Shown piece after piece: positions 32,029-59,532 of a stretch of 64,000 bases of DNA; positions within the stretch are counted from its first letter, which is position 1; each line of letters opens with the position of its first letter. The translations under genes were made by a program, and so were the position numbers. The DNA comes from Candidatus Omnitrophota bacterium (GTDB taxonomy: Bacteria > Omnitrophota > Gorgyraeia > Zapsychrales > Zapsychraceae). Under the pieces are notes generated by a model. The model did no database searches. It had not been told where the DNA came from and saw nothing but the letters and a program-made list of their open reading frames with translations. The stretch covers positions 27,346 to 91,345 of the forward strand of contig JBFWOS010000001.1 in the NCBI GenBank assembly GCA_050250375.1, given 5' to 3'.

Positions 32029-33054
32029 CTACACCCGCCAGGCATATTTCCCTTCCAACAATAAATTATTCAAATACACATCCGTCGCCGGATCAGGTTC
32101 GTCCCCTTGCGGGATAAAGACATCCGCGAGGTACCGGGCATATTTATCGGGGCGGCTGGAGCGCATCACGATCAGCGCTGACTCCTTTAACAGCGACTGC
32201 ACAAACACCTTGGCCGCGTCCCCCTCTTTCGTGCCGAGTTCCGGCGCGTCGATATCCCGCAGGCGCAGGGTTTCGGTGTGCTCAAGGCGGAACCCCAGAT
32301 CAATGCGGACCTTGAGTGTGTCAGCGTCCACCACCCGTTCAATCACCGCCGCGTACGTGAACAGGTCTTTGGTCCCGCGCTCACTGCGTTTGAGCGAATA
32401 GCGGTCGGCCGCAGGATCAAAAACACTTTCAACAATCTCATCCGCCTCGAATTTCGATACGGCGCGCGCCGAAAGACGCTTGTAGATGTTGAAACCCAGA
32501 TCCAGCAGCCACTCGCGTTCATCTTTGCCCGCGCCCAGCTGCGGCCGCTGCACCAGCCGGTACGTGTACAATTGCCCGCGGGCAGGCGTCAATAATTTTT
32601 GCGGGGGAGCCGATTCATTTTTAATCGCGGCCGGTGTTCCTCTTGTGGACTTGATCCTCGCGGCCAGTTCATCCGCGGACCAGGCATGCTCAATGACCTT
32701 CTGTTCAAACAGATCCCGCTCATCCTCGTCGGAAATAGCGATCAGTTTGCGGTAATGGGTCCAGCTGAATTGTGGGCGGCCGCCCACAATCTTCAGGCGG
32801 GGGTACGTCTGCACAAACCGCACACAGCGGTGCAGCGTTGATATTTCGATCCCAAGATCCTTGGATAATCGTTGGACAACCTCCGTCCCATACTCCGCGC
32901 GATCCTTATTTTGTTTAATGTGCGTCTGGATCAGGTTCCCCGTCTCCCAGTAAATCTTCACCTTCTCGGCTTCAATCTTCTGCTGGCCAAGGATCAGCGT
33001 CTGTTTGACTTTTTGAAAGAGGGATTTGTAGGTGGAGGGGAGTTTGGTGGTCAT
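32029..33054 (-). CDS. DUF1016 (YhcG N-terminal) domain fused to a thermonuclease (SNase-like) domain
   Basis: N-terminus (STYKSLFQKVKQTLILGQQKIEAEKVKIYWETGNLI...) matches the YhcG/DUF1016 N-domain. C-terminus (VVDADTLKVRIDLGF...LRLRDIDAPE...KYARYLADV) matches staphylococcal-nuclease-like thermonucleases. Confidence 0.65.
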   Translation of the reverse strand: MTTKLPSTYKSLFQKVKQTLILGQQKIEAEKVKIYWETGNLIQTHIKQNKDRAEYGTEVVQRLSKDLGIEISTLHRCVRFVQTYPRLKIVGGRPQFSWTHYRKLIAISDEDERDLFEQKVIEHAWSADELAARIKSTRGTPAAIKNESAPPQKLLTPARGQLYTYRLVQRPQLGAGKDEREWLLDLGFNIYKRLSARAVSKFEADEIVESVFDPAADRYSLKRSERGTKDLFTYAAVIERVVDADTLKVRIDLGFRLEHTETLRLRDIDAPELGTKEGDAAKVFVQSLLKESALIVMRSSRPDKYARYLADVFIPQGDEPDPATDVYLNNLLLEGKYAWRV

Positions 33055-33133: not shown

Positions 33134-34198
33134 TCACTTATTAATATTTTTGATTCTTTCTTTACCAGAAGTGAGGTTATTTAACACTTCAAAAAAATAA
33201 GTCTTACCGACTCCTTTCGAATAGGAGGAAGAGTGAAATCTTACTGGAGTTGTAAAGATAAGCTGCGTTTCTGGGTGACTTCTCCAAAAAAGATAGGATG
33301 CAAAAGCTTGCATTTTACTGCATTGTGGAGCTATCGCAACGTCATATTGGTACTTTATAACATTAAACTCTTCCTCAAGTTTCGAGAGAATTTCCTCAAA
33401 AAACAGTGTCGAAACTTCAACTTCACGGATATGCCATCGAGAAAGTAACTCAGCATGAATCGATTTTGAGAACTCTGTTCTCCATTGTAAGTTTTTGTGA
33501 GGAGATCTTCCCCAAATGGCAATTAATGTACTTGGAGCATACTGATTTATGAGTCCTTCTATTCTATGGGGCTCATAGCCAACAAAAATAACCAAACAGG
33601 TCTGAGATCCAGGCCTAAAATTCCCACCGAACTCGGGCAATATTTGGACTTCCTTTAGGCCTGCACTTTGAAGATAATCAGTCGCCAAATCAAATCTTTT
33701 TTTAACCAATTCCTTTTCTATTTTCTCAATATCCACTTTCTTAGGAAAATAATCTTTTGCCTCTGTGCAAACGATTGATACTTTCATCCCAATGGATAAG
33801 CATGAGTGAATGGAATATATAGCCCACAAATGGGTCATGCCAGATATGTCTATTAAGACAGATTCGTACGCAAATTCTGTTCGAATTCGCTCGATTTCTG
33901 ATTTTATTTTGAAGCATGTTTGGATTGGGCTATTTGAATTTACTACTAACTCTTTAGGATCTTCTCCCTGGATAGATTTAATCAAGTGTTTAAGTTTCTT
34001 ATAGTTGGGTTCATTATCTTGTTTCTGGCTCTCGTAACGAAATAACAACCATCGACCGATCTTACATTTTGCCTTCTTTAGACTTGCCGTAAATTTTAAC
34101 GCACGCTCTTCAAAACCTGCAGCACAGATGACTAGGTCTTCTGTTAGAGGCTTTTTATAATTAAATTGTAATGCCGTTATTTTGATGTCGTTCATCAT
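33134..34198 (-). CDS. hypothetical protein (last gene of RM-associated module)
   Basis: 354 aa, AT-rich. Start overlaps the stop of the upstream 951-aa gene by 4 nt. No domain recognised. Confidence 0.5.
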   Translation of the reverse strand: MMNDIKITALQFNYKKPLTEDLVICAAGFEERALKFTASLKKAKCKIGRWLLFRYESQKQDNEPNYKKLKHLIKSIQGEDPKELVVNSNSPIQTCFKIKSEIERIRTEFAYESVLIDISGMTHLWAIYSIHSCLSIGMKVSIVCTEAKDYFPKKVDIEKIEKELVKKRFDLATDYLQSAGLKEVQILPEFGGNFRPGSQTCLVIFVGYEPHRIEGLINQYAPSTLIAIWGRSPHKNLQWRTEFSKSIHAELLSRWHIREVEVSTLFFEEILSKLEEEFNVIKYQYDVAIAPQCSKMQAFASYLFWRSHPETQLIFTTPVRFHSSSYSKGVGKTYFFEVLNNLTSGKERIKNINK

Positions 34199-37050
34199 TT
34201 TTCCGGAAATAATGTGCCTTGCTGTGAGGCTACCTTCCCCTCAGCTAAATCTCGCAATTTTCTTCGATGTCGTTCAATAAACTTGGTAGGCTTTAGCAAA
34301 AGCTCTTCCAATCGATCCGTGCTTAGATATATATGATTTCTTACTCTATAAGTAATACCAAATGCAGGCGCGAATATCTTATTTAGGTCATATCGTCTTG
34401 ATAAGCCTATCTGAGCACGTGAAAATGTTACTCCCTCGTCTAACACTAATCCCCACTGAATTAACCCATCTAGAATTAATTTGGCTTCAGCGCTCAATGA
34501 ATCACCATCTAATCTTTCAAATGAAATGGTTTCATACCACCTATTTTCTTCCTCTGTCTTATATTCCACAAGATATCGTCTTGATAACTCACCTATCGAA
34601 CTTATAACTGAGAATAATGCATTACCCAAAGACGTATTGTCAACCTCACCCGGAATATTGGATAAAGCTTTGAATAGTGTCTTGGCATGAGTTCTCACGA
34701 CTACATCTTGATCTCTTAAAGAAACTTTTCCAGAACCGGGTTGTACGCTATTATGACTGAAAATTTGTTCGACCAACTCTAATAAAGTTCTTATGCTCCC
34801 ATGGGATATGCTTGAAATTATATTCCATCCGGCATAATAGGCTTTTCCCCGTGGAGGGCGTTTCTTTGTGGACTCTCCTTTTTTAGGTCTCCTAGCTCCT
34901 GGCTGACTTAACCCTCTCAGGAATTCTTCTGAGGATTGAGATTCCCCCAATATATTCACTATGCTTTCGTTAAAACCTGCCGACTTAAGCCTTGTATCAA
35001 TAACTCTGGCCATATACTTCGATAAATTCTTTGAAGTGTCTCGTTGAGTTTTTGTGGAGACTTCACCCAAATCAACATATGTTGCCTCATGCCTTGGATC
35101 AATGGCACGACCATCTGATGAATCTATCGTATACATGTATTTATCATATGTGATTTTAAAGCAGTGATTTTCTTGAACTGATCGTACTAATGAGTTTAGG
35201 ATTTTCTGCATTTCAAAATGCATATTACCTTGACTTGCATCATCAACCAAAATGAAAAACCTAGTACTTCGCAACTCGCCAAACAGCTGTTTTATTACAA
35301 AGAAAAAGGAATCCAAGTCTCTTTCATCAAAAAAATGACTAATTTTCCTTTCTCCAATCCTATACCAGTTAGCTATTATTGAACTCTCTTGCGCCACACA
35401 AACTGCAAGGATCTGATGAAATATGTTAATGGGATTTTCTGGGTCGACTAAAATTAATTTACCCAATCTTTCCTCAAGAAACTTAATTAAGAGTTGATAA
35501 TCATTAGGAATTTGAATTATGGGCCGCTTACTTACCGGATCGACACATTCTAAACCTTTCTTAATTTCCTCAAATGTTTTATTCCAAATCTTTAAAACTA
35601 AAATATGTTTCAATATTCTTTGAGTCTCTGGATCAAATATATCTTGACCAATGGCCTGTGGCGTAAACACCTTAAATTCTCCAAGTCTGCAAGTGAATAG
35701 AACACCAAATGAGTTCTGAAAATTATATCGAATTTGTTCAAGTCGTTCTCTAAGTTCTAGATCATCTTGGGATTGAATTATAACCTGTGGATTAAAAGCT
35801 AGTACTCTCAAATAATGAGATTTACCACAACCCCTAGGTCCGGAAATCAATGTATTTCCGAAGCGGGAAATGACATCAAACCTGGCTGCATCAGGCTCAA
35901 AAAGCTTATATAACTTACCTGCTGTAGGTATCCATTCTACACGTAACCATTCAAACGGCTTTTCAACTGGAACTTTAAAAAAATTTTCAGGCACTGAAGC
36001 TTCGGGCTGATTAAAAACACGCATTATTTCCTGGAATGAACTAAATTTATTCTCCATTAAATTCTGAAGGATGGAATACACCTTCTCACCCAATATATAT
36101 CTTGCGGGGTTTCCAGGACACTTCTCACATGCCAACAAGGCTACTTTTAGTAAATGATTTCTAAAATTCTCTAAGTCAGACTTGACTTCAAGTTGTGGCG
36201 ATGAAGAAGAAGGAATTCCAATAAAATCAATCAGCCAAAATTCTATATTTGACATCTCTACAGTTGAAACGCTTGTGAAATCAACCAAAATATTACGTTC
36301 GTGCAAATCTCCGTGTATTAATCCAGCTTTTTCAATCTCAGCCATAGCTCCACCGATTCTTTGTATAAATCGATCAAAAAATTTACTTGTTATATTCTCT
36401 TGAGATTTTAAAAATTCCAGAAATGTTTTTGCTGATACGGGAATATTTTCAAAAACCACACAATTCAGAACCACTTCTTTTCCCTCGGGCAACTCAATAT
36501 TCAATTCTCCCATTTCTATTACTTCGGGCAATGCTGGATGCTTTAATTTTGAGCGCATTACTAGAGCTCTTCTTAATTTCTCCCAAGAAACAGTTCCCGG
36601 CAAAAAAATCTTGAGAGTTCGGTCTCTGTCTAGCATTGTTTCTTTTGCTAGAAATGTATATGATGAGTTGCCTTTCCCAAGAAGGCTTTTAACCTCATAA
36701 CTATGTTTAAGTGGTTCACTAACTTTTTTGTCATCTGTTTTTACTGTTTTGCCAATAAGGAAATCTAAGGAAAATAGTTCAATAGTAAAATATTTATCGA
36801 TCCAATCGGCCAACTTAAACCCTTTATCTGTTCTAGTGATAATTCTATGCTTATCTAATAAATCTAACTCTGAGTCCAGTTGATCCCTACTTATTTCCAA
36901 ATTCTGCGCAATCTTACTTTCATTTTCATTCGGGAATTGATGCAAGTACAATAAAATTAAACGCTTAAAAGGATCACTCATCAAGGTAATTATATTCCCT
37001 TGACGCTCAGTACGTTTATTTGGTTCTTTCAAAATAATCCCAGAACTCAT
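34195..37050 (-). CDS. wHTH - protein-kinase-like - P-loop NTPase fusion protein (951 aa)
   Basis: N-terminal winged HTH. Glycine loop LLGKGNSSYTFLA, lysine in TLKIF, catalytic loop LIHGDLHERNILVD and WLIDF (Kdo/RIO/APH-like kinase fold). Then Walker A ISGPRGCGKSHYLRV and Walker B FILVDDASQ. Confidence 0.65.
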   Translation of the reverse strand: MSSGIILKEPNKRTERQGNIITLMSDPFKRLILLYLHQFPNENESKIAQNLEISRDQLDSELDLLDKHRIITRTDKGFKLADWIDKYFTIELFSLDFLIGKTVKTDDKKVSEPLKHSYEVKSLLGKGNSSYTFLAKETMLDRDRTLKIFLPGTVSWEKLRRALVMRSKLKHPALPEVIEMGELNIELPEGKEVVLNCVVFENIPVSAKTFLEFLKSQENITSKFFDRFIQRIGGAMAEIEKAGLIHGDLHERNILVDFTSVSTVEMSNIEFWLIDFIGIPSSSSPQLEVKSDLENFRNHLLKVALLACEKCPGNPARYILGEKVYSILQNLMENKFSSFQEIMRVFNQPEASVPENFFKVPVEKPFEWLRVEWIPTAGKLYKLFEPDAARFDVISRFGNTLISGPRGCGKSHYLRVLAFNPQVIIQSQDDLELRERLEQIRYNFQNSFGVLFTCRLGEFKVFTPQAIGQDIFDPETQRILKHILVLKIWNKTFEEIKKGLECVDPVSKRPIIQIPNDYQLLIKFLEERLGKLILVDPENPINIFHQILAVCVAQESSIIANWYRIGERKISHFFDERDLDSFFFVIKQLFGELRSTRFFILVDDASQGNMHFEMQKILNSLVRSVQENHCFKITYDKYMYTIDSSDGRAIDPRHEATYVDLGEVSTKTQRDTSKNLSKYMARVIDTRLKSAGFNESIVNILGESQSSEEFLRGLSQPGARRPKKGESTKKRPPRGKAYYAGWNIISSISHGSIRTLLELVEQIFSHNSVQPGSGKVSLRDQDVVVRTHAKTLFKALSNIPGEVDNTSLGNALFSVISSIGELSRRYLVEYKTEEENRWYETISFERLDGDSLSAEAKLILDGLIQWGLVLDEGVTFSRAQIGLSRRYDLNKIFAPAFGITYRVRNHIYLSTDRLEELLLKPTKFIERHRRKLRDLAEGKVASQQGTLFPEK

Positions 37051-37589
37051 TTTCCTCCTAATAATTCCATCTGTTTACAAGCAGCGACTCGTTTAACCTG
37101 ATCAATAATTCGAGTTGACAAATGACATTCAATAATATCTCGCTCTCCATCAAACCAATCTAATTTACCATTTAGCCCTTCGAAAATTTGTAGAATACCT
37201 TGCGCGCTATAACCATTTCTATGATTCTGATCAACACAAATCATCATCTTCACTGCAAATTTTCTATTTCCCGCAAAATCATGAGCCTCTCCAATAGCAC
37301 CAGGACTTACCATTAAATTTATGATATAATCATACTCCTCTATCAAAATTTCTTCGGCCACTTTTACATTCAACCCTCTTAAATTCATATCCTCTTTATT
37401 GATTATTTCTTCTGGAAAATCTGCATCATGATTTAACTCTTTAAGCTTCATCCTTATTTCACAACGCTTCGCATATAAGTCCCCTCCACTGATACCTGGA
37501 CCAAAAATTAATATTTTTAGCTTACAGCCATCATGAATTCTACTGGCTGCCGCACGCAATCTTTTTAGATGTTTGTTAGTCATAACCAA
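37047..37589 (-). CDS. hypothetical protein, possible flavodoxin-like NDT/SLOG-fold enzyme
   Basis: KILIFGP...DYIINLMVSPGAIGEAHDFAG loosely resembles the NDT-superfamily xGTxxExG nucleophile motif. Weak assignment. Confidence 0.35.
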   Translation of the reverse strand: MVMTNKHLKRLRAAASRIHDGCKLKILIFGPGISGGDLYAKRCEIRMKLKELNHDADFPEEIINKEDMNLRGLNVKVAEEILIEEYDYIINLMVSPGAIGEAHDFAGNRKFAVKMMICVDQNHRNGYSAQGILQIFEGLNGKLDWFDGERDIIECHLSTRIIDQVKRVAACKQMELLGGK

Positions 37590-37605
37590 AATATCACCAA
37601 GCTTT

Positions 37606-38754
37606 TCACTTAGGCCTCATTAATAAAATAAGTTCGCAGGATTCCTTTCTGGAATCTCTTTTGGTGTTATTTCCACCCAGCGTGCTAAACCTCATCTTTA
37701 CTTTTTCCTTCTCTTGAATATCAAAAAATTGCATTGCTGTGTTTTTAACTTCTTCTCCTGATAAACCGTTGCTGCATTCCTCATTAGGAAAAGTAAATAT
37801 AACTGTAGCCCCGGACTCAGCAAGGTTACTTAAGAGATCAATTAACGCCTGTTTTGATTGTCCTTTATTGCTAAAGCTTGATTGAGGTCTTTTGGATATA
37901 TCAGGGTAGCGCCCCACACCGGAAACCTTTCCACACTCTTTATTGGCAATGGTTTCCAGGACATGATAAAAGCGGCTGTATTGAACTCCGGAATAAGGCG
38001 GGTCCACAAAGACAAGATCGGTGGGTCTCAATTTCTTGGCCTCGTCAATAGCATTTGCCACGCGAGCCTCGCCAATAGTCCTTGCATGCAACTTTGATAC
38101 TTCCGACAATGTTCTTTTGCACACATCAACCGGGTCTTTTTGCCAGGATTCCAACAAAAATTTCTTGGCCGTTCTGGTGGGTTGGAACGGCTGTGCCGTG
38201 TGTCCGGGAGAAGCCGCGCACCGACTAGCAGCCATGATGACGGCAGCTAAGCTCACCTTTTGATGAGTCAATTCTTGCGGAACATATTTTAATAAATAGT
38301 CAAAGGTCAGCGCTTGCTGCGGGCTGTAATAATGCCCTCCATAGGCATTCCAGATGGGGCCAATTGTTGACCGCTCTTCACAGAGTTCACGACAATCTTT
38401 AACATATTGACCCATCCTGCGCTTATCAAGCTTTGCGCTAAGCTTTTCAGCGGATATCCATAACTTCGATTCCCGCCTTAAATCGTCCACCCGATTAAGC
38501 CAATTTTCAGTAAGCTCCGATTCTTCAATAACCCTATTTCTTCCAATAATTGATTCCGTCAGGATAACGGAGTATTTCTGCAAATCTATTGCAAGCACCG
38601 GTAAGTCGGTGTGTCGAGCCACATGACACGCAACAGCCCCTGCCCCGCAAAAAAGATCCACAATCCGTTTAGCGGATTTGGCTTCTTCATCAAGCAACTT
38701 TCCCAAACCATTGGTGAGCATATACCGTTTTGAGCCCATGTATTTCATATACAA
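37606..38754 (-). CDS. Dam-family DNA N6-adenine methyltransferase with C-terminal extension
   Basis: YMGSKR at the N-terminus, DLFCGAGAV SAM motif, and DPPY catalytic motif. 382 aa versus about 280 for canonical Dam. Confidence 0.8.
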   Translation of the reverse strand: MYMKYMGSKRYMLTNGLGKLLDEEAKSAKRIVDLFCGAGAVACHVARHTDLPVLAIDLQKYSVILTESIIGRNRVIEESELTENWLNRVDDLRRESKLWISAEKLSAKLDKRRMGQYVKDCRELCEERSTIGPIWNAYGGHYYSPQQALTFDYLLKYVPQELTHQKVSLAAVIMAASRCAASPGHTAQPFQPTRTAKKFLLESWQKDPVDVCKRTLSEVSKLHARTIGEARVANAIDEAKKLRPTDLVFVDPPYSGVQYSRFYHVLETIANKECGKVSGVGRYPDISKRPQSSFSNKGQSKQALIDLLSNLAESGATVIFTFPNEECSNGLSGEEVKNTAMQFFDIQEKEKVKMRFSTLGGNNTKRDSRKESCELILLMRPK

Positions 38755-40031
38755 ATTCCTGTTAAGCCAATACGTTCACAACCGGAAAGTATCAAGAGTT
38801 CCTTTGATAATTTGGTACGCAACTCAAATACATTGTTAATCAAAGATGCATCTTGGTTAACATTATTTATAGTATCGTTAACTTCACTCCACATATCTAA
38901 CAAAGGATCGGTACTTGTATTTTCCCAAAGACCTCGATCTATACCCAATGGTTCCCACCAAAATTCTAAATCTTTTTTAGTTGTAGCTGTACATTCCATC
39001 AAGCGAGAGACTGACCCCGTAGATAACCTTAAGAGCAACATCGCTCGACATAACATTTGTATATGATATTTTTCGTCAGTGTAAGTTCCATTTTTTCTTG
39101 CTTCTATTAAAAGACGCGATCCAGGCAGTTTATTAGTTGGCCCCGATAATAAAGTACTTAACCTCTGTGATTCATTCTTAGAAATCCCCAAATTCTGCAT
39201 GACTTTAATTAATTGCTTTTTTGGAATACTGCTTTTTGAGCCATGTAGAGATCTAAAATATTTTTGCAGGGCTCCCCTAAACAACAAAAAATCTATAACA
39301 AAACTATTATTTTTTGAAGGGGTAAATGAATTCCACATTTCTGTAATTAAATTAAGCACTTCCTTAATATTTAAAGAGTTATATGGGGTTAAGTCAGAAG
39401 GTCTATAGCTAGCCTCATTTCTTACAGTTCTATCTTTTTCTAATATTTTCAAATCATGAATCCAATTTTTCAGCCAATCTTCAGCAAGCCATCCAATTGG
39501 AGAGCTATACCCTCCCGTTAATTCAGTAAACCAATCTTTAAGACAAATTCCTTCAGGTCTAATTATTTCCTCAATTAAATGGATAGCATTTGGTGATTTG
39601 GCCCAAACTTCAAATGCTTCTACTACTGCGACATGTGTTCCCTTTCCCGAAATTTTATGAATTCTTGAACTATCGATAGTAAAATGAATTTTATCAAATA
39701 TTCCAATTCCCTCTGCTGCCAAGAGCGACATAACCGCCCTTAACTCTGCATAATAGGCAAAATGTTTAGTCCGACTCCTGTCGCCCAATGAATAAGATAT
39801 TAGTGCTTTCCCCAGAAAATCCCACCCATCTAAACAATGCAAAGGTGTGGAGGCAGCTATATATTTTTTTATATCCCGCCTAATGTTTCCGGCCTTACAG
39901 TCTATTGAAATTTTTTTTATACAATTCTTTCTGTATCGATTATTAAAAATCCATCTATTAAGCTTGAAATCCTTTTTTAGAAGTTCAAAATTTTTCTCAG
40001 ATTCTATTCTTGAAAATGCAGAATATGGCAT
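38745..40031 (-). CDS. hypothetical protein
   Basis: 428 aa, AT-rich, translationally coupled to its neighbours. No domain recognised. Confidence 0.5.
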   Translation of the reverse strand: MPYSAFSRIESEKNFELLKKDFKLNRWIFNNRYRKNCIKKISIDCKAGNIRRDIKKYIAASTPLHCLDGWDFLGKALISYSLGDRSRTKHFAYYAELRAVMSLLAAEGIGIFDKIHFTIDSSRIHKISGKGTHVAVVEAFEVWAKSPNAIHLIEEIIRPEGICLKDWFTELTGGYSSPIGWLAEDWLKNWIHDLKILEKDRTVRNEASYRPSDLTPYNSLNIKEVLNLITEMWNSFTPSKNNSFVIDFLLFRGALQKYFRSLHGSKSSIPKKQLIKVMQNLGISKNESQRLSTLLSGPTNKLPGSRLLIEARKNGTYTDEKYHIQMLCRAMLLLRLSTGSVSRLMECTATTKKDLEFWWEPLGIDRGLWENTSTDPLLDMWSEVNDTINNVNQDASLINNVFELRTKLSKELLILSGCERIGLTGICI

Positions 40032-40039
40032 AGTATTTT

Positions 40040-41545
40040 TTACCTATTAAAACCTAAATGTTCAAAAACATTTTTGGCAACCGTTCCCAATTCTGTTTTT
40101 TCAACCATCAAATGTCTCAAAAGTTGACGACGAAACTCTCTATAACCACTTCCTCCTCGAAAAGCTAATTTTCGCAATCTTTCATTTTCCTCTAAATTAG
40201 GAGCACCTGATGATCTCCAATCAAACTTTGAGAGGGACTGAGTTAAATTATCAATAAAATCTATAATTTTCTTTTTACGTTTTAGATCTTTAATGGCTTC
40301 GTTTACTGAAATTTCGGCATCTGGGACATCTGATAATTTCCATGATTTAAGGTTGAGACTTACTGCTTTTTCGAAGAAAATGTCGTTGGTCACATTCAAC
40401 ACAACTGAAACACCTTGATCATTATTGAGCAATGAATGTGGCCCATCAAATGCTGGGTCATTATTCTTTTGCTTTTTATATTTAATACCCCTTAAATCTT
40501 TTGCCCATCCCGAGTTATTGTCTTCAACAAAATATTTTATTCTGTTCCAAAGATATATCAGGAAGGCCGCTTGTTGTGTCCTTGTCCAGGGGATAATGAT
40601 CTTGTGTTCCCCGACTCTTGCGCCATAAAGACCCCCTATTGAAACACCTTTACCTTCGTATGACTTTATATAACTTTTGAGCAAAGCTCTAATCCAAGCA
40701 GCTTGGGTAACAGCCCCAGCGCCACCCTCCCCTAACATATTTATTCGATGATACCAAACACTTTCCTGTTCGTACCATAATGACTCAGTAATTTCCTGCG
40801 CTCTTGCCTCTCTATATACTTTGTGCCCCTCAAATCTATCAAGCCAATCTTCCGTTCGCAACAATGGATAAAGGTCATAGGCTAAACTTGGATTAATCCT
40901 CTTTGGTTTTATATTAATCGTCCAAAATAAATATGCCTGCCAACTAATATCTAACTCATGAAAAGCCACAACAGGAAGCTGATAGTTTTCATCATCCAAC
41001 TTGTCATCAAAGGCCAATAACCGATGTTGTCCATCTATTATTTCTATTGGATGTTTCTTCTTTGGCTTCCAGTTTTTCCCTTTAAAACTTCTAGGCAATA
41101 TAACTTCAATGTCTGTTGAATTCTCTTCAATTTCAATTAAATCATTCTTGTCAACAGCCATATCGTTTCTTTCATCAGCCTTCCCTAAAATATTTACAAC
41201 TATCGCTGTAGGAAGCCACCCTGGTTTTCTCAAATTATTAAAAACTTCTTCTTTCCTTTTCGAACCTGATAATTCTGACCATGGATATCCATATTTAATG
41301 TACTCACGTATATTTGCTGAACGAGATGGCTCATGTTGTCTTTGTATATGTTTATCACTGGTTCTTGAAATTCCAGATTTAATTCCGCGTCTATATACAC
41401 CTGATAATAGTTTTAACTTCTTAGCGGAAAGAGAAAAAACATAAAAGAACTCTTTTGGCTTCTTTCTTAAGTTTTCTTTCTTAAATTCGATACCTTTCCA
41501 TTCATTCAACCACTGATGGATTTTCAATGCCTTTATTTTTTCCAT
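40040..41545 (-). CDS. DGQHR-domain protein (DndB/DpdB-like, ParB/Srx superfamily)
   Basis: IIDGQHRLLAF motif. 501 aa. Confidence 0.75.
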   Translation of the reverse strand: MEKIKALKIHQWLNEWKGIEFKKENLRKKPKEFFYVFSLSAKKLKLLSGVYRRGIKSGISRTSDKHIQRQHEPSRSANIREYIKYGYPWSELSGSKRKEEVFNNLRKPGWLPTAIVVNILGKADERNDMAVDKNDLIEIEENSTDIEVILPRSFKGKNWKPKKKHPIEIIDGQHRLLAFDDKLDDENYQLPVVAFHELDISWQAYLFWTINIKPKRINPSLAYDLYPLLRTEDWLDRFEGHKVYREARAQEITESLWYEQESVWYHRINMLGEGGAGAVTQAAWIRALLKSYIKSYEGKGVSIGGLYGARVGEHKIIIPWTRTQQAAFLIYLWNRIKYFVEDNNSGWAKDLRGIKYKKQKNNDPAFDGPHSLLNNDQGVSVVLNVTNDIFFEKAVSLNLKSWKLSDVPDAEISVNEAIKDLKRKKKIIDFIDNLTQSLSKFDWRSSGAPNLEENERLRKLAFRGGSGYREFRRQLLRHLMVEKTELGTVAKNVFEHLGFNR

Positions 41546-41579
41546 AGTTTTCCCCTATATTTGTTATTCTACGGATTAT

Positions 41580-43103
41580 TTATGTTCTCTCAAACGCCTC
41601 CCGCAACACCGCTCGCATCAGCATTTCGGAGTGGTCTTTGCGTTCGGCGACTTGTTTATCAAGCTCACCGACCATGATCGTAAACTTATCCACCAGGTTG
41701 ACGATAACTTGTTGTTCAATCACAGAAGGGACAGGAACTACAAACTGTTCAAGATTGTATTTAGGAAGACCTTCCCGTCCAGCACCTGTAGTAGATTCGA
41801 ACATCACCTTTTGGAATTGCGGTGATAAAACTATTTTGTGCATAAATCCTTTAGACATTAAAATACTTCGAATAATACAAACGTGTTGACTTACATTTCC
41901 TTCTCTGAAATCTACTGGAATTAATGCACACCGCCCAAGAGATCCGCCAGTAATATTTAACAGTAAATCGCCAGCAATGACAGCTGTTCCTTTCATCTGT
42001 TTATGTACTTCGGAGGATATAAATTTTATATCGTCACAATCTAAGCCATCGTCATGAATATTCTGAGACCTAAAAAATAAAATTCCTTTTGTTGAGTAAT
42101 TACTCCCTTTCGGAGTACTTCCTGAACCAATCTTCGAACAAAGATCACCCAACCGACACCATTCCCACCCCTCCGGCAACTCAAAGGGTTTTTCTTCATT
42201 GGTTATTGGTGATAATGGTTTTTCTTTTTTAATTTTCCCTTCCTTAATCAGTCGTTCTTTCTCTGCCTTAATTCTCTCAAGCAACTTTGAGGCATGGTTT
42301 TCGCCGCTGATGAGTTTAGGATTTTCTTTGCGCCATTGGGCTGTCAATTTACCTTCAATGGCTTCCTGCAAAACAGATTGACGAAGATTGTAAAGCAAAG
42401 CTTCTTGAGTCTCGACTTCATCTTTAAATAACTGTCGTAAACAATTTATATTCTTAACTCTATTGAATTTCAATTTCGCTGTATGAAGGATTTCACTCCT
42501 TGAAAGCTCTCCTGTATTCTTATAATGTACAATCTTATTTTGCACGTCCACAGAACAGGCAGGAAACATTAGCTGTTTCATTTTCTCCGCATTTACATTT
42601 GGTTGCGCTGTCCCATTTTTCATTTCAAGAATTTGATTCCAAAAAAGATACGAATTCAAAAAAAGATAAATATATTCGGGATTAAAGCTGGCATTAACTG
42701 TCAACCGAATCAAGTAACTTGCGAACACGCAATTTGTTGGAATATTTTTGATAAATACTGTTTTACCAGTTGTACCACCTGTTCGCGTTATTAAAATATC
42801 CTCTTCATTTAATGAATACTTTTTTAGCTCTTTACAGTCACAAAAAGGTACAGACGGCCAATCTATTACGCCCTCAGTAATGTCGGTAATACGGAGCAAC
42901 TTGCTATTCCCATCAAGCTTTGCAGATGTAGTATAACCATACTGGGTCTTAGTTAGAGCATCCCCCAAAGGAATAAAATTCTTGTAAGTATCAGCAATGA
43001 TTTTCATTAATACCGTGTTATGTAGCTGCCTTAACTCTTCTTCGTTAGATTTAATAAATGTAAGTTTGCGATAGCCATACTCAGGAACAAAAGAATTAAC
43101 CAT
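41580..43103 (-). CDS. hsdS: Type I restriction-modification specificity subunit
   Basis: Two target-recognition domains separated by a conserved central coiled-coil (ELPEGWEW...). Conserved C-terminal region. Confidence 0.85.
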   Translation of the reverse strand: MVNSFVPEYGYRKLTFIKSNEEELRQLHNTVLMKIIADTYKNFIPLGDALTKTQYGYTTSAKLDGNSKLLRITDITEGVIDWPSVPFCDCKELKKYSLNEEDILITRTGGTTGKTVFIKNIPTNCVFASYLIRLTVNASFNPEYIYLFLNSYLFWNQILEMKNGTAQPNVNAEKMKQLMFPACSVDVQNKIVHYKNTGELSRSEILHTAKLKFNRVKNINCLRQLFKDEVETQEALLYNLRQSVLQEAIEGKLTAQWRKENPKLISGENHASKLLERIKAEKERLIKEGKIKKEKPLSPITNEEKPFELPEGWEWCRLGDLCSKIGSGSTPKGSNYSTKGILFFRSQNIHDDGLDCDDIKFISSEVHKQMKGTAVIAGDLLLNITGGSLGRCALIPVDFREGNVSQHVCIIRSILMSKGFMHKIVLSPQFQKVMFESTTGAGREGLPKYNLEQFVVPVPSVIEQQVIVNLVDKFTIMVGELDKQVAERKDHSEMLMRAVLREAFERT

Positions 43104-44529
43104 TCTGAACTGCTTCCTTAAGTTTCTTTAAAAGTTCTTCACTCTTGCAAAACGAATCATGAAGCGTGGCGACCAGCTCTGCGCTTGAATAGACGTGTTC
43201 CGCTTCAGGCATGTGTGGATTTTTAATGTCGAGGTTATACCCATTAGTTGCTATCGTTTCGATCGAAACTTTCCAGACCTGTTCGCTTTTTTTACGTTTC
43301 TTCCACCATTTCTTTAGACCATCGAATTCACTTTTCTGTATCGGTTTAGTCTTATTATAAGCCTTTACCCCTTCCGGCAATTTGTGTTCCCAATACCAAA
43401 CCTCTTTTGTAGGCTTGCCTTTGTCGAAGAATAGAAGATTTGTCGCAACGCTCGCATAAGGTTGAAAAACCGAATTAGGCAGACGCACTATCGTATGTAA
43501 ATTGCAATTCTCCAATAGATGTTGACGTATCCGTTGCTTAACTCCGTCTCCCGTCAGCGATCCGTCCGGTAGTACAATACCTGCGCGCCCCCCGTCTTTG
43601 AGATAACGGATCATCAACATTAAGAAAAGATCGGCACTTTCTGCGGTGCGGAAATTCTGCGGAAAATTGGTTTCGACTCCATCCGTAACCGAAGCACCAA
43701 AAGGAGGATTGGCAAGGATGACATCAACCCGGTCTTTTTGTCCGATGGATGTATATTCGCGATTAAGGCTATCAGTATAATCAATATTGGGGACTTCAAT
43801 GTCATGGAGGATAAGATTAGTGACGGCCAACATAAAAGGAAGCGGCTTAAATTCCATTCCGTGAATCGTTTTTTCAAGTTCCTTCAGGTCATCAACGCCC
43901 TTAACATCCTGCGTGCGAATATTCTCGATTGCACTCGTTAAGAAACCGCCGGTGCCGCAGGCGGGATCCAAAACTTTCTCACCTAACCTTGGATTTACCA
44001 TTTCCGTAATAAATTCGGTCAGAGCGCGCGGGGTGTAGAATTCCCCGTAATTGCCGGCGTTTTGAAGATCGCGCAGGATGGTCTCATAAATATCGCCAAA
44101 AACGTGACGGTCCTCGGCTTTGTTAAAGTCAATCTGGTTTAACGCGTTAATCACCTGGCGGAGGATGGTGCCGTTTTTCATATAGTTGTTTGTGCCGTCA
44201 AATATTTCACGGACAATAAGCGCGCGTTTATTGCCGGTGCTCACGTCTAAATTCTTTAGTTGAGGAATTAGTTTGCCATCAATAAAACTTTTCAGCTCAT
44301 CCCCCGTCATCCCCTCATCATCAGCGGCCCAATTACGCCATTGTAATTCCTTGGGGATCACCGAAACATATTTATTATTGATTAACTCCATTTCCTGATC
44401 TTTATCATCCAAAACCTTGAGGCTGATCATCCAGCCCAATTGTTCGATGCGCTGGGCGTCTCCAGACACGCCGGGGTCTCTGCGCATAATGTTTTGTAAA
44501 CTTTTAATGATACCGCCAAGATTCTTCAT
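43096..44529 (-). CDS. hsdM: Type I restriction-modification DNA methyltransferase subunit
   Basis: HsdM N-domain, DPACGTGGFL SAM motif and NPPFG catalytic motif. Confidence 0.9.
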   Translation of the reverse strand: MKNLGGIIKSLQNIMRRDPGVSGDAQRIEQLGWMISLKVLDDKDQEMELINNKYVSVIPKELQWRNWAADDEGMTGDELKSFIDGKLIPQLKNLDVSTGNKRALIVREIFDGTNNYMKNGTILRQVINALNQIDFNKAEDRHVFGDIYETILRDLQNAGNYGEFYTPRALTEFITEMVNPRLGEKVLDPACGTGGFLTSAIENIRTQDVKGVDDLKELEKTIHGMEFKPLPFMLAVTNLILHDIEVPNIDYTDSLNREYTSIGQKDRVDVILANPPFGASVTDGVETNFPQNFRTAESADLFLMLMIRYLKDGGRAGIVLPDGSLTGDGVKQRIRQHLLENCNLHTIVRLPNSVFQPYASVATNLLFFDKGKPTKEVWYWEHKLPEGVKAYNKTKPIQKSEFDGLKKWWKKRKKSEQVWKVSIETIATNGYNLDIKNPHMPEAEHVYSSAELVATLHDSFCKSEELLKKLKEAVQNG

Positions 44530-44538
44530 TAACTCTCC

Positions 44539-46944
44539 TTACGCAACGGCATAAAGCTCATGCTCCAACTCTTTGATGGCCAGGATGTATTGATCACGGC
44601 CGCCAAAGGATTGAATAATTTCCGTTGGTGTTCCCATTTGATTAAACGGCTCGATTTTTAAGACTGAAAGGTCTTCAATATTCTCAATGCCTTCATCCGC
44701 ATATTTATCCAACAGGGCGTTGAGAACGGCACGCGCTTTGTTGCCGTATTTGGTGAAATAATTGCGTTTTTTAACTCCTTCGGCTCTTTCTTTGCGTGTG
44801 AGAGCCGGCATATCCCAGGCGATATGACAAATCAGATCAAAAATATCTAAATCTTTCTTTGTTTCCTCCAACAAATTCTCCAGAATAATGCCTTTCGATT
44901 CTAGTTCTTCGACAATCGCTTGTTTTTTATGAGTGCTATTCCACCTGGCGAGAAATTCGTTCAAGGTGTGAAACTCTTTTATAATACTTCTTTTCGTATA
45001 GTCAATTAAGGTCTCGGTCATCAGTTTGCCGTTGGCATCCAAATGCTGGACACGTTCATTCAAAATGGACACATCCACGCCAGCGACAAAGATTTTTGGA
45101 CTCGGATCAGATGTTATTGGTCCCCCCCCCACAATTTCAGGCGGAGGATCATAGATGGTAGTTCCATCTCCTTCAAAATCAACAGGCTCATCGGTTTCAG
45201 GATCGATGACTTCCTGATCATCTAAAGGATCAATAACTACATCTGTTATCTCCTCATCTCCATTAATTTCTTTGATCATGACCGGATCTCCGTCAAACTT
45301 AGAGTCGGCAAAAAGATTGGTGACACTGCGAAAATCCATAATCGTAAAATATGTTTTATCGTATACTTCGTTAATACGCGTTCCGCGGCCGATAATCTGT
45401 TTGAACTCGGTCATGGATTGAATATTTGACTCAAGAACAATCAATTTGCAGGTTTGCGCGTCAACACCGGTGGTCATCAATTTTGAAGTGGTGGCAATGA
45501 CAGGATAAGTTTCTTCGGGATTAATAAAATTATCCACTTCGCGCTTACCTTCGTCATTATCGCCGGTTATACGCATGACATATTTATAGTTCTCCAAAAC
45601 CAAATCTGAATTTTCAATGGCCAGGGCTTGTCGCATCCGTTCGGCATGTTCGATATCTACACAAAAAACAATGGTTTTGTCAAAACGATTTGTCTTTCTT
45701 AAAAACTCAGTTATCTTCTTGGCCACTATTTTTGTCCGATCATCAATAACCAAATTTTTGTCAAAATCTTTAGTGTTATAGACCCGGTCTTCGACCTCGT
45801 TACCGTCTTTGTCTTTCTTGCCTAATTCCGGGCGCCAGCCTTCCAGATCGGTATTGATTCCGACTCGGATAACCTTGTAAGGCGCCAGAAACCCGTCCGC
45901 GATACCCTGCTTGAGCGTGTAGGTGTAAACAGGTTCACCAAAATAATCAATATTAGAAATTGTCTTTGTTTCCCGCGGGGTTGCAGTAAGTCCGATATGT
46001 GTAGCGGATTTAAAATAATTAAGAATCGCTTTCCACGCGTTGTCAGACGCCGCGCTTCCGCGATGGCACTCATCAACAACCACTAAATCAAAAAAATCAG
46101 GACGGAATTGTCTATACGCGTCCTTATCCTCATTATCATTTGTCAGTCCTTGATAAAGGGCTAAATAAATTTCGTAGGCTTTGTCAATCTGGTGTTTTTT
46201 GATAACAGTCATTTTTTCTTTAAAATGCTTAAAATCATTGCGCTTGGTTTGATCAATCAGAATGTTACGATCCGCCAGAAAAAGTATTCGCTTTTTCCTG
46301 CCGTTTTTCCAAAGCCGGTAGATGATTTGAAACGCCGTGTAGGTTTTTCCTGTGCCGGTGGCCATGACAAGGAGCACTCTATTCTGCCCGCGGGCGATGG
46401 CTTCAACAGTTCGATTAATCGCGATTTGCTGATAGTAGCGCGGGGAACGTCCTGAACCATCGTAAAAATAGTCGAATGAAGCGGCTTGTTCCTCCTCGGG
46501 AGTTTCAATATTTTTAAACTTTTTGTATATTTGCCATAATTCAGCGGGGGAAGGAAAATTGTCCAGGGAGTATTCTTTTTCGATCGGCATCGTGAGTCCG
46601 GAAAAATCATGCTGGATAAAGCCGTCGCCGTTAGAACTAAAGGCGAGCGGAACATCCAATATCTTTGCGTATCTTAAGGCTTGTTGTAACCCGGAACCTA
46701 CTGAATGGTTGTTATCTTTTGCTTCAATGACAGCGATGGGAATATTGGGTTTAAGATAGAGAATAATGTCGGCACGTTTTCGTTCGCCACGGACCGATTT
46801 TTTACCCTTAACAAAGATACGGCCGTCAGTAAAATACACTTCCTCACGAATCTGTTTTGATAAGTCCCAACCCGCTTTAAGTATGGCCGGCAAAATGAAT
46901 TGGGTGCAGATATCGCGTTCCGAGAGTTCTTTTTTGTTGGTCAT
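44539..46944 (-). CDS. hsdR: Type I restriction enzyme R subunit (EcoEI-like C-terminus)
   Basis: MTNKKELSERDICTQFILPAI N-terminal nuclease domain, TGTGKT and DECHR helicase motifs, and an EcoEI_R_C-like C-terminal domain. Confidence 0.9.
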   Translation of the reverse strand: MTNKKELSERDICTQFILPAILKAGWDLSKQIREEVYFTDGRIFVKGKKSVRGERKRADIILYLKPNIPIAVIEAKDNNHSVGSGLQQALRYAKILDVPLAFSSNGDGFIQHDFSGLTMPIEKEYSLDNFPSPAELWQIYKKFKNIETPEEEQAASFDYFYDGSGRSPRYYQQIAINRTVEAIARGQNRVLLVMATGTGKTYTAFQIIYRLWKNGRKKRILFLADRNILIDQTKRNDFKHFKEKMTVIKKHQIDKAYEIYLALYQGLTNDNEDKDAYRQFRPDFFDLVVVDECHRGSAASDNAWKAILNYFKSATHIGLTATPRETKTISNIDYFGEPVYTYTLKQGIADGFLAPYKVIRVGINTDLEGWRPELGKKDKDGNEVEDRVYNTKDFDKNLVIDDRTKIVAKKITEFLRKTNRFDKTIVFCVDIEHAERMRQALAIENSDLVLENYKYVMRITGDNDEGKREVDNFINPEETYPVIATTSKLMTTGVDAQTCKLIVLESNIQSMTEFKQIIGRGTRINEVYDKTYFTIMDFRSVTNLFADSKFDGDPVMIKEINGDEEITDVVIDPLDDQEVIDPETDEPVDFEGDGTTIYDPPPEIVGGGPITSDPSPKIFVAGVDVSILNERVQHLDANGKLMTETLIDYTKRSIIKEFHTLNEFLARWNSTHKKQAIVEELESKGIILENLLEETKKDLDIFDLICHIAWDMPALTRKERAEGVKKRNYFTKYGNKARAVLNALLDKYADEGIENIEDLSVLKIEPFNQMGTPTEIIQSFGGRDQYILAIKELEHELYAVA

Positions 46945-50236: not shown

Positions 50237-50632
50237 TTAGTCTGACTTATTTATCAATGACTTTAGGATTTGCGCAAACCCCTCTTTATCAAGATTTCCT
50301 GTAGCCAGTTTCATCATTCCATCGTACAATTTCTGATCCTGGTCAAGAATTTCAATGCCGTTTAATTCAAGAAATACCAGAGCAGCTGCCAGCCCTGTTC
50401 TTTTATTCCCATCGATAAAAGGCTGATTCTGGGAAATATGAAACGCATAGGCGGCAGCCTTCATGCTTAGATCGCCATGGAGGTAATCCCCCTGAAATGT
50501 TGCCTGCGGTTGTGACAACGCCGATTGAAGCATTTCCATATCTCTGAGTCCGGGTTTGCCGCCATATAAATCGAGTTGGTTTTGATGGATTTCAATGATT
50601 TCGGCGAGGGTCAGAAAAATAAATTCATTCAT
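50237..50632 (-). CDS. doc: Doc (death-on-curing) family toxin, Fic fold
   Basis: FIDGNKRTG matches the Doc variant of the Fic motif. Confidence 0.85.
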   Translation of the reverse strand: MNEFIFLTLAEIIEIHQNQLDLYGGKPGLRDMEMLQSALSQPQATFQGDYLHGDLSMKAAAYAFHISQNQPFIDGNKRTGLAAALVFLELNGIEILDQDQKLYDGMMKLATGNLDKEGFAQILKSLINKSD

Positions 50633-56816: not shown

Positions 56817-56819
56817 CCT

Positions 56820-59522: not shown

Positions 59523-59532
59523 CACCCGTCTC

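Follow-up and report, generated by a model that had tools for sequence, protein, structure and literature searches.

A nine-gene array in a low-GC island of an Omnitrophota genome, probably composed of three stacked and separable immune modules

Introduction

The Dnd and Dpd systems encode a DGQHR/ParB-fold protein, DndB and DpdB respectively, beside a DNA-modification enzyme. The dnd operon is reported to be under negative regulation by DndB, modulated by ATP (PMC4507180; summarised in PMC10853773). Comparative genomics has placed a HEPN-type protein, a ParB-superfamily protein, and a DNA methylase together in the HEPN family MAE_28990 (2013, PMC3710099, Table 1). In ParB-like (DUF262) sensors of the SspE/GmrSD/BrxU type, an NTP-binding domain is linked both with an effector and with the modification state of the DNA (PMC3632139). 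One BREX type 2/Pgl locus unites the PglX methylase, the PglW Ser/Thr kinase, PglZ, and the PglY/BrxC ATPase, BrxC being assigned to the ORC/Cdc6 clade (PMC12839542). DNA methylation triggers the effector of retron-Eco1, which then hydrolyses NAD(P)+ (PMC12673091). MADS is composed of a Type I-like methylase, a specificity subunit, and a protein kinase. The PADLOC models PDLC01917 and PDLC01925 presumably have the 2020 CARF classification as their source; that classification left aside, no functional description of the CARF6 STK-AAA architecture was found. Here, a gene array of an Omnitrophota metagenome-assembled genome was compared with these systems. The window is the whole stretch of DNA analysed (64,000 nt).

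Results and discussion

Organization of the nine-gene array

Nine co-directional ORFs occupied positions 33134–46944 of the minus strand, exactly the nine head-to-tail genes listed in an earlier note on this DNA. In gene order, they were as follows.

44539..46944, minus strand: hsdR, Type IB (EcoAI/EcoEI family) restriction subunit, 801 aa (NF046051, Pfam, PADLOC)
43096..44529, minus strand: hsdM, Type I N6-adenine methyltransferase, 477 aa (Pfam, PADLOC)
41580..43103, minus strand: hsdS, Type I specificity subunit with two target-recognition domains, 507 aa (Pfam, PADLOC)
40040..41545, minus strand: module A gene 1, DndB-like DGQHR protein (ParB/Srx fold, predicted NTP-binding switch), 501 aa (TIGR03187)
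38745..40031, minus strand: module A gene 2, "U428", all-helical with a putative HEPN-like domain, 428 aa (no Pfam, NCBIfam, or PADLOC family)
37606..38754, minus strand: junction methylase, D12-class (Dam-like) N6-adenine DNA methyltransferase, 382 aa (Pfam, PADLOC, motifs)
37047..37589, minus strand: module B gene 1, NDT-like (nucleoside deoxyribosyltransferase/N-glycosidase fold), 180 aa (PADLOC, family profile)
34195..37050, minus strand: module B gene 2, (wHTH)-Ser/Thr-kinase-like and ORC/Cdc6-like AAA+ ATPase, 951 aa (Pfam, structures, motifs)
33134..34198, minus strand: module B gene 3, CARF6-type (CARF-like Rossmann) protein, 354 aa (PADLOC)

The junctions measured +9, −8, +34, +8, −10, +16, −4, and −4 nt in gene order. 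Therefore, the earlier description of gaps or overlaps of 0–10 nt held for six of the eight junctions, but not for those between hsdS and the DGQHR gene (34 nt) and between the methylase and the 180-aa gene (16 nt). Stop and start codons overlapped as ATGA at the NDT/kinase and kinase/CARF junctions, and also at the U428/Dam junction if the methylase started at the ATG at 38748, giving a protein of 380 aa.

Each of the nine genes had a GC content of 0.34–0.45, compared with 0.50 at positions 1–29000 and 0.54 at positions 53100–64000, as expected from the AT-richness noted before. The methylase gene (0.445) and hsdM/hsdR (0.42–0.44) were GC-richer than their neighbours (0.34–0.38). The low-GC block extended past the array, from ~29.7 to 53.1 kb, with a GC content of 0.40. 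The DUF1016-nuclease gene predicted on one side contained DUF1016_N and an SNase-like C-terminus in Pfam and had a host-like GC content of 0.556. The repeat-rich boundary was also found, as a direct repeat of ~180–200 nt (47311–47506 and 48140–48317) accompanied by shorter repeats. The proposed horizontally acquired, low-GC island of the defence type was upheld.

The six genes behind hsdRMS gave no system-level match in PADLOC and NCBIfam, in agreement with the earlier statement that they fit no described system. PADLOC returned single-gene matches only, and the NCBIfam cut-offs for Dnd, Dpd, BREX/Pgl, and MADS were widely missed. The 13.8-kb array is probably best explained as three separable immune modules stacked in a low-GC island of ~23 kb.

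Type IB restriction-modification operon

The first three genes had been named hsdR, hsdM, and hsdS, and Pfam, PADLOC, and NCBIfam upheld all three identities. The hsdR product matched the equivalog model NF046051 (restrict_EcoAI) with 1164 bits against a cut-off of 550, contained the Pfam domains ResIII, EcoEI_R_C, and HSDR_N, and matched PADLOC REase_I with 1164 bits. The hsdM product matched N6_Mtase (9e-73) and HsdM_N in Pfam and MTase_I in PADLOC (1e-189). The hsdS gene, overlapping hsdM by 8 nt, encoded Methylase_S in two stretches and matched Specificity_I (2e-81). These family matches identify hsdRMS as a canonical Type IB system of the EcoAI family; all three genes were present in operon order, and nothing was unusual beyond the modules behind them. 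No recognisable terminator was located between hsdRMS and the next modules. A promoter-like match (10/12) lay at 41593–41566 across the hsdS stop codon, in a region where promoter counts were no higher than in shuffled sequences.

MADS models were matched weakly and below their cut-offs, with 117 against 720 bits for MAD2, 107 against 400 for MAD5, and 37.5 against 460 for MAD6; the MAD2 and MAD5 matches arose from the ordinary hsdM and hsdS.

The six genes had been described as riding on a Type I system. The association was recurrent, being seen for module B in locus L118 and for module A in L040, L041, and L113, but it was a minority association. The L118 kinase-ATPase was the closest relative found (53% identity) and was encoded behind a homologous Type IB hsdR/hsdM (43% identity) without module A.

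Modules A and B apart and joined

The earlier note had taken the six genes as one module. Instead, the first three genes were present without the last three in 80 genomes and six viral contigs, and the last three without the first three at 28 metagenomic loci as well as at five others (L114, L115/L116, L117, L118, and L119). In 80/80 GTDB loci, spread over many phyla and also archaea, U428 directly followed the DGQHR gene, and the NDT, kinase-ATPase, and CARF genes were found in 0/80. Six of six viral loci kept the DGQHR-U428-methylase triad and none contained module B genes.

Over 30 loci contained module B, as a rule accompanied by a canonical Dam of its own but not by module A. In the 28 metagenome loci, the NDT gene was upstream in 26 and the CARF gene downstream in 21, all misses being contig ends; the CARF gene followed the kinase-ATPase wherever the contig reached far enough. 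A canonical Dam was upstream in 18/28 and U428 in 0/28. Module B stood alone in L114, in L115, in L117, a locus with no Dam, and in L119, located on a Tn7-like element. An adjoining methylase was absent in about 36% of module B loci (for example, L117), so that module B in general cannot depend on methylation.

The search for co-occurrence in other genomes also returned the six genes together and in the same order in two other metagenomes, L109 and L120, the former with an inserted DUF4357 gene. Their proteins were about 34–62% identical to those of the window. Each joined locus had exactly one methylase, located between U428 and the NDT gene. It was of the window's type in the window and L109, and a canonical Dam in L120. 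In the window, module B lacked a canonical Dam of its own and abutted the methylase of module A. Judged from gene neighbourhoods, modules A and B stand independently in most genomes, and on at least three occasions one has been placed head to tail with the other.

The six genes may instead form one integrated, methylation-dependent defence system in which the methylase serves both halves, a reading that is possible if doubtful. The recurrent order, the single methylase at each joint (albeit of differing family), and the ATGA overlaps are consistent with it. In L091 and L088, a different DGQHR-HEPN fusion protein was encoded between a Dam and an NDT-kinase-CARF trio. Both modules are rare, with U428 relatives in 192 of 185,579 species genomes, so that the repeated adjacency of A and B is far from chance. 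However, none of the 80 genome loci and six viral loci of DGQHR-U428 contained the other three genes, and DGQHR-U428 was missing from 14 or more distinct kinase-ATPase loci whose upstream sequence was visible. In addition, the joined loci were not monophyletic in a neighbour-joining tree of the kinase-ATPase, a quick distance tree without support values. Since A and B were mostly apart and the composites formed no clade, each half functions, or at least persists, alone, as in the reading of stacked, separable modules.

DGQHR protein, U428, and the junction methylase

The 501-aa protein, called a DGQHR protein from the start, matched TIGR03187 with 70.7 bits against a cut-off of 58.85, and its DGQHR motif and ParB-like fold placed it in the ParB/Srx superfamily. 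Its scores for Dnd membership were 28.2 bits for Pfam DndB (gathering threshold 29.1) and 55 bits for TIGR04172, the Dnd-associated DGQHR model (450). For Dpd, the DpdB model NF041060 gave 26.5 bits against 300, and PADLOC DpdB matched only partially (8.8e-6). None of dndC, dndD, and dndE was found among the nine genes or the scanned flanking ORFs, and no TGT-like (DpdA) gene among the scanned ORFs. In contrast to Dnd and Dpd, the modification enzyme here was a Dam-type methylase, and the DGQHR protein had an obligate 428-aa partner that is absent from both systems.

At E≤1, U428 and 31 of its relatives (32 members in all) were matched by no Pfam model of any kind, which includes the HEPN models; a sequence-profile link to HEPN proteins was likewise not found. 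The family contained 18 invariant residues, mostly polar or aromatic. In place of the HEPN Rx4-6H motif, it had an invariant R204-N-E-A-S208-Y209, with Tyr at the position of the expected His. Module A shares its three-part logic with the MAE_28990 family, with DGQHR in 80/80 loci and an adjacent adenine methylase in 66/77, whereas MAE_28990 keeps the Rx4-6H motif that is R-N-E-A-S-Y in U428. The absence of Pfam matches in the 32 members gave no support for placing U428 in that family, in a comparison made through Pfam models rather than the MAE_28990 sequence. The SspE, GmrSD, and BrxU proteins each consist of one polypeptide that includes an HNH/DUF1524 nuclease, and modified DNA is the target of most of them. 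In module A, by comparison, the candidate effector is a helical protein in its own right, encoded in a cassette that has its own methylase.

The Dam-like call for the junction methylase was confirmed by Pfam MethyltransfD12 (PF02086; 58.6 bits, cut-off 22), motif I (VDLFCGAG), and motif IV (DPPY). The TIGR00571 "dam" score was just 25 bits against 114.85, so the enzyme is a divergent member of the D12 class. The C-terminal extension attributed to it was not borne out, as the PADLOC MTase_II model (343 positions; 2e-23) spanned residues 3–365. Among 77 loci, a DNA-modification gene adjoined DGQHR-U428 in 70. The downstream partner was a methylase of the window's type in 46, a canonical Dam in 14, and an HsdM-like protein in one; a canonical Dam was upstream in five, and four had dndCDE.

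These four loci (L004, L015, L029, and L055) were the only ones with dndCDE, and in the first three the DGQHR gene stood upstream of dndC-dndD-dndE, the usual place of dndB. Together with the negative regulation of the dnd operon by DndB (PMC4507180; PMC10853773) and the far stronger conservation of DGQHR (50–64% identity) than of U428 (30–48%), this placement would suit a module A that acts not as an immune effector but as a DndB-style pair regulating how much or when DNA is modified, whether by methylation or, with dndCDE, by phosphorothioation. This is unlikely: an obligate 428-aa partner with 18 largely polar or aromatic invariants would be superfluous for a regulator, and DndB itself has been argued to be a possible co-effector (PMC10853773). 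Moreover, module A was distributed patchily across phyla, into archaea and prophage-like contigs, and its surroundings were of the defence type (Type I restriction-modification, integrases, and PADLOC candidate genes).

NDT-like, kinase-ATPase, and CARF6-type proteins

The suggestion of an NDT-like fold for the 180-aa protein was supported by PADLOC NDT_II-A (9.5e-7) and by a match of its family profile to the retron Ec86/Eco1 effector (7v9x_C, E 9.5e-6), in which SPGSIGE was aligned with ESPGSFTE. Residues G30, P31, S95, P96, G97, and E101 were invariant. Homologues in L117 and L118 contained an LmuA/Avs2-type nuclease N-domain (4e-15), which several homologues have and the 180-aa protein lacks. 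Although the NDT domain and its SPGS..E motif are homologous to those of the retron effector, the C-terminal DNA-binding part of that effector was missing. No RT or msDNA gene was present among the nine genes, and Pfam detected no RT domain in the ten proteins scanned.

The 951-aa protein had been read as a fusion of a wHTH, a kinase, and a P-loop NTPase. The latter two parts were supported. Residues 365–718 matched Pfam ORC-CDC6-like (8e-44), with an invariant Walker A (G404PRGCGKS411) and Walker B (D603D604). Residues 114–276 matched Pkinase, Kdo, and RIO1, all below the gathering cut-offs, residues 114–263 were matched by PknB structures (E 1e-3), and the invariant residues of the kinase part were G125xG127, K147, H246-x-D248-x4-N253, and D275-F. 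The wHTH was indicated by faint HTH_45 matches and the source names only. The analogy drawn to Pgl/BREX-2 was a fair functional resemblance for module B alone, and it did not extend to membership: BREX_PglW scored 18.6 bits against 990, and the PglX model was matched by hsdM alone (25.8 against 500). Pfam, PADLOC, and flanking-ORF scans found no PglZ, and PglX was also absent. Furthermore, the kinase and ATPase are fused here in 951 aa, and the methylase is a small D12 enzyme that is missing from about a third of the loci.

The 354-aa protein, formerly an unknown, matched PADLOC CARF6--CARF_CARF_CARF (PDLC01917; 2e-25) over residues 3–338. It also matched positions 876–1184 of the fused 1187-position model CARF6--CARF_STK_AAA (PDLC01925; 5e-11), of which the kinase-ATPase matched a different part. 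Here the two parts are separate genes with a 4-nt overlap, joined by a conserved NDT-like gene and mostly by a Dam. A weak Pfam match to Csa3_N (0.0066) was also obtained, and neither the sequence nor a 19-sequence family profile found a PDB relative. By the PADLOC models and the one weak Pfam match, the protein is of the CARF6 type. In a further reading, the CARF protein would sense cOA produced at another locus of the genome, and module B would be an accessory to cyclic-oligonucleotide signalling as in CRISPR type III or CBASS. This is very improbable, since, despite the weak Csa3_N match and CARF6 models held among the CRISPR/CARF-associated models of PADLOC, no cyclase, Cas10, or cas gene was present in the window ORFs examined and the module B loci with called genes, the conserved partners were a Dam methylase and the kinase-ATPase, and the family profile matched no CARF protein in the PDB.

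Proposed mechanism

The array would then probably consist of a Type IB restriction-modification system, a restriction-modification-like cassette A, and a sensor-switch-effector cassette B. In module A, the methylase would mark the host's own DNA, and the DGQHR protein would load on or read DNA according to the methyl mark, on the model of ParB-fold NTP switches. U428, as the obligate partner, may supply the effector activity, as an RNase or another nuclease-like protein, directed at unmarked invaders or at the infected cell. In module B, the wHTH/ORC-Cdc6 AAA+ part could act as a DNA- or nucleotide-dependent switch, the fused kinase would pass the activation on, and the CARF6-type protein would give a small-ligand input. 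The NDT-like protein, with relatives fused to an LmuA/Avs2-type nuclease and a domain homologous to the retron-Eco1 NAD(P)+ N-glycosidase, would be the output, and abortive infection would be the expected outcome.

The ATGA overlaps and the three independent composites suggest that cooperation between the two modules could be tighter than the term separable implies. Modules A and B may each represent a separately mobile candidate anti-phage cassette.

Organization of the gene array

The array in the window was composed of a Type IB restriction-modification (RM) operon and two autonomous candidate defence cassettes, modules A and B, which were recurrently fused around one methylase. The ORF list reproduced the nine head-to-tail minus-strand genes of the earlier note with the same gene sizes.

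Genes of the array
44539-46944, minus strand, hsdR, 801 aa
43096-44529, minus strand, hsdM, 477 aa
41580-43103, minus strand, hsdS, 507 aa
40040-41545, minus strand, DGQHR gene (module A), 501 aa
38745-40031, minus strand, U428 gene, encoding a helical HEPN-like protein (module A), 428 aa
37606-38754, minus strand, methylase gene (junction), 382 aa
37047-37589, minus strand, NDT-like gene (module B), 180 aa
34195-37050, minus strand, kinase-ATPase gene (module B), 951 aa
33134-34198, minus strand, CARF6-type gene (module B), 354 aa

From hsdR to the CARF gene, the junction distances were +9, -8, +34, +8, -10, +16, -4, and -4 nt. Inspection of the junction sequences revealed ATGA stop/start overlaps at the NDT/kinase and kinase/CARF junctions, and a methylase start at the ATG at 38748 would make the U428/methylase junction a third such overlap. 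Promoter and terminator scans of the region gave counts not above the shuffled expectation. The minus-strand sequence with the best sigma-70-like score (10/12; 41566-41593) spanned the hsdS stop codon, 21 nt before DGQHR begins, and may serve module A as an internal promoter.

The AT-rich character of the block was borne out by per-gene GC values of 0.34-0.45, the outer flanks having values of 0.50 and 0.54, and the low-GC block extended over approximately 29.7-53.1 kb of the window. It also contained KilA-N, Bro-N, RhuM, Fic/DOC, NTP_transf_8, and ORF6N genes, which are typical of an accessory or defence island.

Further genes of the low-GC block
50237-50632, Fic/DOC
51160-52225, NTP_transf_8 nucleotidyltransferase and small upstream partner ORF
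52520-53080, ORF6N

The NTP_transf_8 gene and its partner are possibly a toxin-antitoxin pair. Searches of E. coli genomes with both the module and the flank as queries found nothing similar.

A plus-strand tRNA-Val(GAC) gene (26920-26994), separated by about 2.7 kb from the beginning of the low-GC block, is a possible integration site of the island. A direct repeat of about 180-200 nt (47311-47506 and 48140-48317), with 74-100% identity over three segments, contained a 46-nt stretch of 100% identity with a palindromic GTCACATGTCACATGTGAC core. A 524-aa minus-strand ORF (47537-49111) enclosed the second copy, immediately behind its RhuM domain and ahead of its MORN repeats; two genes may have been joined in this ORF by read-through across the repeat element. 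The short motif TTGACCGTTGGGCT occurred four times in the window, at 47372, 48198, 50101, and 50161. The DUF1016 gene (32029-33054), with a host-like GC of 0.556, encoded a DUF1016_N domain with a staphylococcal-nuclease-like C-terminus and matched the PADLOC candidate PDC-S02; the usual C-terminal partner of DUF1016_N is the YhcG PD-(D/E)xK domain. A DUF1016/YhcG gene was also found within the homologous Type IB operon of L118 (L-numbers denote homologous loci from other genomes or metagenomes), between hsdM and hsdS.

Identities of the encoded proteins

HsdR scored as an equivalog of the EcoAI family (1164 bits; cut-off, 550), and HsdM and HsdS were ordinary Type I subunits. The 382-aa protein, previously called Dam-like, was a divergent D12 adenine methylase with motif I and DPPY intact. 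Its gene had a GC of 0.445 and a GC3 of 0.44, compared with 0.34-0.37 and 0.26-0.34, respectively, in both neighbours on each side; these values would fit a gene that was swapped in or acquired separately, or else composition constraints.

The NDT-like and kinase-NTPase calls of the earlier note were borne out. The profile of the NDT-like family matched the retron Ec86/Eco1 effector (E 9.5e-6), with SPGSIGE paired with ESPGSFTE of the effector. This effector is a DNA methylation-triggered N-glycosidase with NAD(P)+ as its substrate (PMC12673091). The 951-aa protein matched the ORC-CDC6-like AAA+ family (8e-44) and its kinase region was sub-threshold; the G-loop, Lys, HxD...N, DF(x)G, Walker A, and Walker B were invariant in 26 homologues. 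The 354-aa protein, by contrast, could no longer be listed as an unknown: it matched PADLOC CARF6 models (2e-25) and the C-terminal third of the fused PADLOC model CARF_STK_AAA, the Walker-A region of which was matched by the 951-aa protein.

Against the PDB, a CARF-like family profile built from 19 sequences gave no meaningful match. Pfam at E<=10 added nothing new for the 428-, 180-, 354-, and 501-aa proteins, and no HEPN family or other consistent family emerged from a Pfam scan of 32 U428 relatives. The matches of U428 to the PDB by Foldseek were helical membrane proteins only and were regarded as spurious.

Distribution of module A

An alignment of U428 relatives was used to scan one genome per species (185,579 species genomes), among which 192 stretches encoded a U428 relative. 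In the 80 loci examined, a DGQHR homologue was always located directly upstream of U428 on the same strand (80/80), and NDT, kinase-ATPase, or CARF proteins were matched in none (0/80). The gene after U428 belonged to the family of the window's methylase in 46 loci, was a canonical Dam of ~285 aa in 14, and was HsdM-like in 1, and five more loci had a canonical Dam just upstream. In three cyanobacterial or uncultured loci (L004, L015, and L029) and one Methanoregula locus (L055), dndC-dndD-dndE adjoined the pair (the DGQHR-U428 pair) in place of the methylase, and DGQHR occupied the usual dndB position in the former three. A DNA-modification partner was thus found beside DGQHR-U428 in 70 of 77 loci; 7 were without a recognisable partner and 2 were contig ends.

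The DGQHR-U428-methylase triad was also kept in six IMG/VR contigs. An exhaustive profile search gave 1226 representatives of 50%-identity clusters for the U428 family (E<=1e-3), and the best 150 of these 1226 matches were of near-uniform length, ~450 aa.

Two additional protein families were observed at these loci. A DUF4357 protein (~285 aa), which matched the PADLOC candidate PDC-S14 (1e-80), followed the module-A methylase in L109 (5667-6518), L110 (12422-13282), L065, L066, and L079, and stood between modules A and B in L109. A second, longer DGQHR family of ~614-773 aa was encoded in L008 (5958-7799; 614 aa, up to the contig end), L052 (4888-7209), L062 (6950-9247), and L091 (6497-8788). 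It was composed of an N-terminal Hjc/REase-like region, a DndB/DpdB-like core, and a C-terminal RNxxxH HEPN motif, and was found beside a canonical Dam, three times next to module A and once between Dam and module B. When the families were compared by hhalign, U428 showed no similarity to this HEPN domain.

Distribution of module B

With an alignment of kinase-ATPase relatives, 28 metagenome loci were retrieved. The NDT gene was upstream in 26 and the CARF gene downstream in 21, all misses being contig ends, and U428 was present in none of the 28. A canonical Dam directly preceded the NDT gene in 18 of the 28 loci, and these Dams were 30-59% identical (mostly 35-45%) to the Dam accompanying DGQHR-U428 elsewhere. 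Further loci with called genes showed module B standing alone: L114 had it with Dam beside integrases, L115/L116 had it among genes of housekeeping type, L117 lacked Dam, and L119 carried it on a Tn7-like element. The kinase-ATPase family was absent from the IMG/VR viral contigs.

The NDT protein was of double length (358-397 aa) in L084, L091, L092, L106, L117 (6811-8004), and L118 (8801-9877). Its N-terminal half in L117 and L118 matched the nuclease effector domains of LmuA (Lamassu) and Avs2 (4e-15), a domain that the 180-aa protein of the window lacked. Because of this domain in relatives, which is the best single indication, module B is predicted to be an abortive-infection-type defence.

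Joining of the two modules and the Type I context

The earlier note had regarded the six genes after hsdRMS as one candidate novel system of DNA-modification-dependent defence. Modules A and B each occurred apart, so this unity did not stand as such, whereas the six-gene order recurred outside this genome in two loci. L109 (a Logan assembly) contained DGQHR, U428, a methylase of the window's family, DUF4357, NDT, kinase-ATPase, and CARF genes; L120 (a 135-kb JGI contig with integrases nearby) contained DGQHR, U428, a canonical Dam, NDT, kinase-ATPase, and CARF genes. Their proteins were 34-62% identical to those of the window, and the three composites did not group in a quick neighbour-joining tree of the kinase-ATPase. 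Each had exactly one methylase, always at the joint. Since both cassettes are rare, three same-strand, abutting joints are not chance. The composites were a minority, making up 3 of the ~19 kinase-ATPase loci in which upstream sequence was visible and 3 of the ~90 DGQHR-U428 loci. In L091, and in part in L088, a 763-aa REase-DGQHR-HEPN (RNIVAH) protein was located between Dam and the NDT-kinase-CARF trio.

The proposal that the set rides on a Type I RM system was likewise upheld in part. Type I genes preceded module A in L040, L041, and L113, and module B in L118, but L118 was without module A. It contained the closest kinase-ATPase relative found (53% identity), after a homologous Type IB hsdR/hsdM (43% identity). 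The picture is one of combinatorial shuffling of three kinds of modules, with some pairings preferred.

Comparison with known systems

As previously stated, the six genes matched no canonical set: membership failed for Dnd, Dpd, BREX-2/Pgl, and MADS, and also for retrons. The nearest prior notices of either cassette were two, both comparative-genomic. One was the HEPN family MAE_28990, in an operon with a ParB-superfamily protein and a methylase (PMC3710099), which U428 matched through no Pfam model. The other was the CARF6 STK_AAA group, known by PADLOC model labels alone. These labels presumably derive from the 2020 CARF classification (Makarova et al. 2020). No experimental work on either cassette was found in the literature, and neither was described in the BREX-diversity, Dnd-reappraisal, Tn7-cargo, or ParB-CTPase literature examined.

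Proposed mechanism and implications

The near-obligate modification partner, which swaps between Dam-type methylation and phosphorothioation, speaks for a DGQHR-U428 pair that recognises a DNA mark or relies on one. Proteins of the ParB fold work as NTP-dependent switches on DNA, and a DndB-like protein binds both ATP and GTP. In SspE, GmrSD, and BrxU, nucleases are gated by related DUF262 domains (PMC3632139). Together, these points favour an RM-like cassette for module A, in which unmarked DNA would license an effector activity supplied by U428. In module B, the wHTH/ORC-Cdc6 AAA+ would act as the switch, the kinase as the transmitter, the CARF6 protein as the ligand input, and the NDT-like N-glycosidase, with or without the nuclease domain, as the output. 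Dam, where present with module B, would serve for self-marking or as a methylation-linked trigger as in retron-Eco1. Module B of the window lacked a canonical Dam and may rely on the methylase of module A, an attractive but unproven arrangement.

It is conceivable, though rather unlikely, that the six genes are a recurrent and hitherto undescribed composite immune system in which one Dam-type methylase writes a self mark that two different arms read. One arm would combine the DndB-like ParB-fold switch and the HEPN-like partner protein, and the other the kinase-ORC/Cdc6 ATPase with the CARF and NDT-like proteins; the repeated assembly would arise because the arms back each other up. If so, DndB-like proteins in general would sense the modification state and could be re-paired with either methylation or phosphorothioation. 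The gene run of the earlier note was confirmed, and its interpretation only partly.

The general understanding of defence islands is unchanged, and candidate systems of this sort are numerous. If the above assignments hold, module A would be a clean RM-like cassette of three genes, based on a DndB-like protein together with the U428 family, which is absent from Pfam, NCBIfam, and PADLOC and has >1,200 50%-identity-cluster representatives in bacteria and archaea. Its partner swap between Dam methylases and dndCDE would bear directly on the role of DndB-type proteins. Module B would provide a defined gene set (NDT-like, kinase-AAA+, and CARF6, with or without Dam and the nuclease domain) for a CARF family so far found in catalogues only, with an output domain homologous to a methylation-triggered NAD(P)+ glycosidase. 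The composites would then be a natural case in which two immune modules have fused around one methylase that both share.
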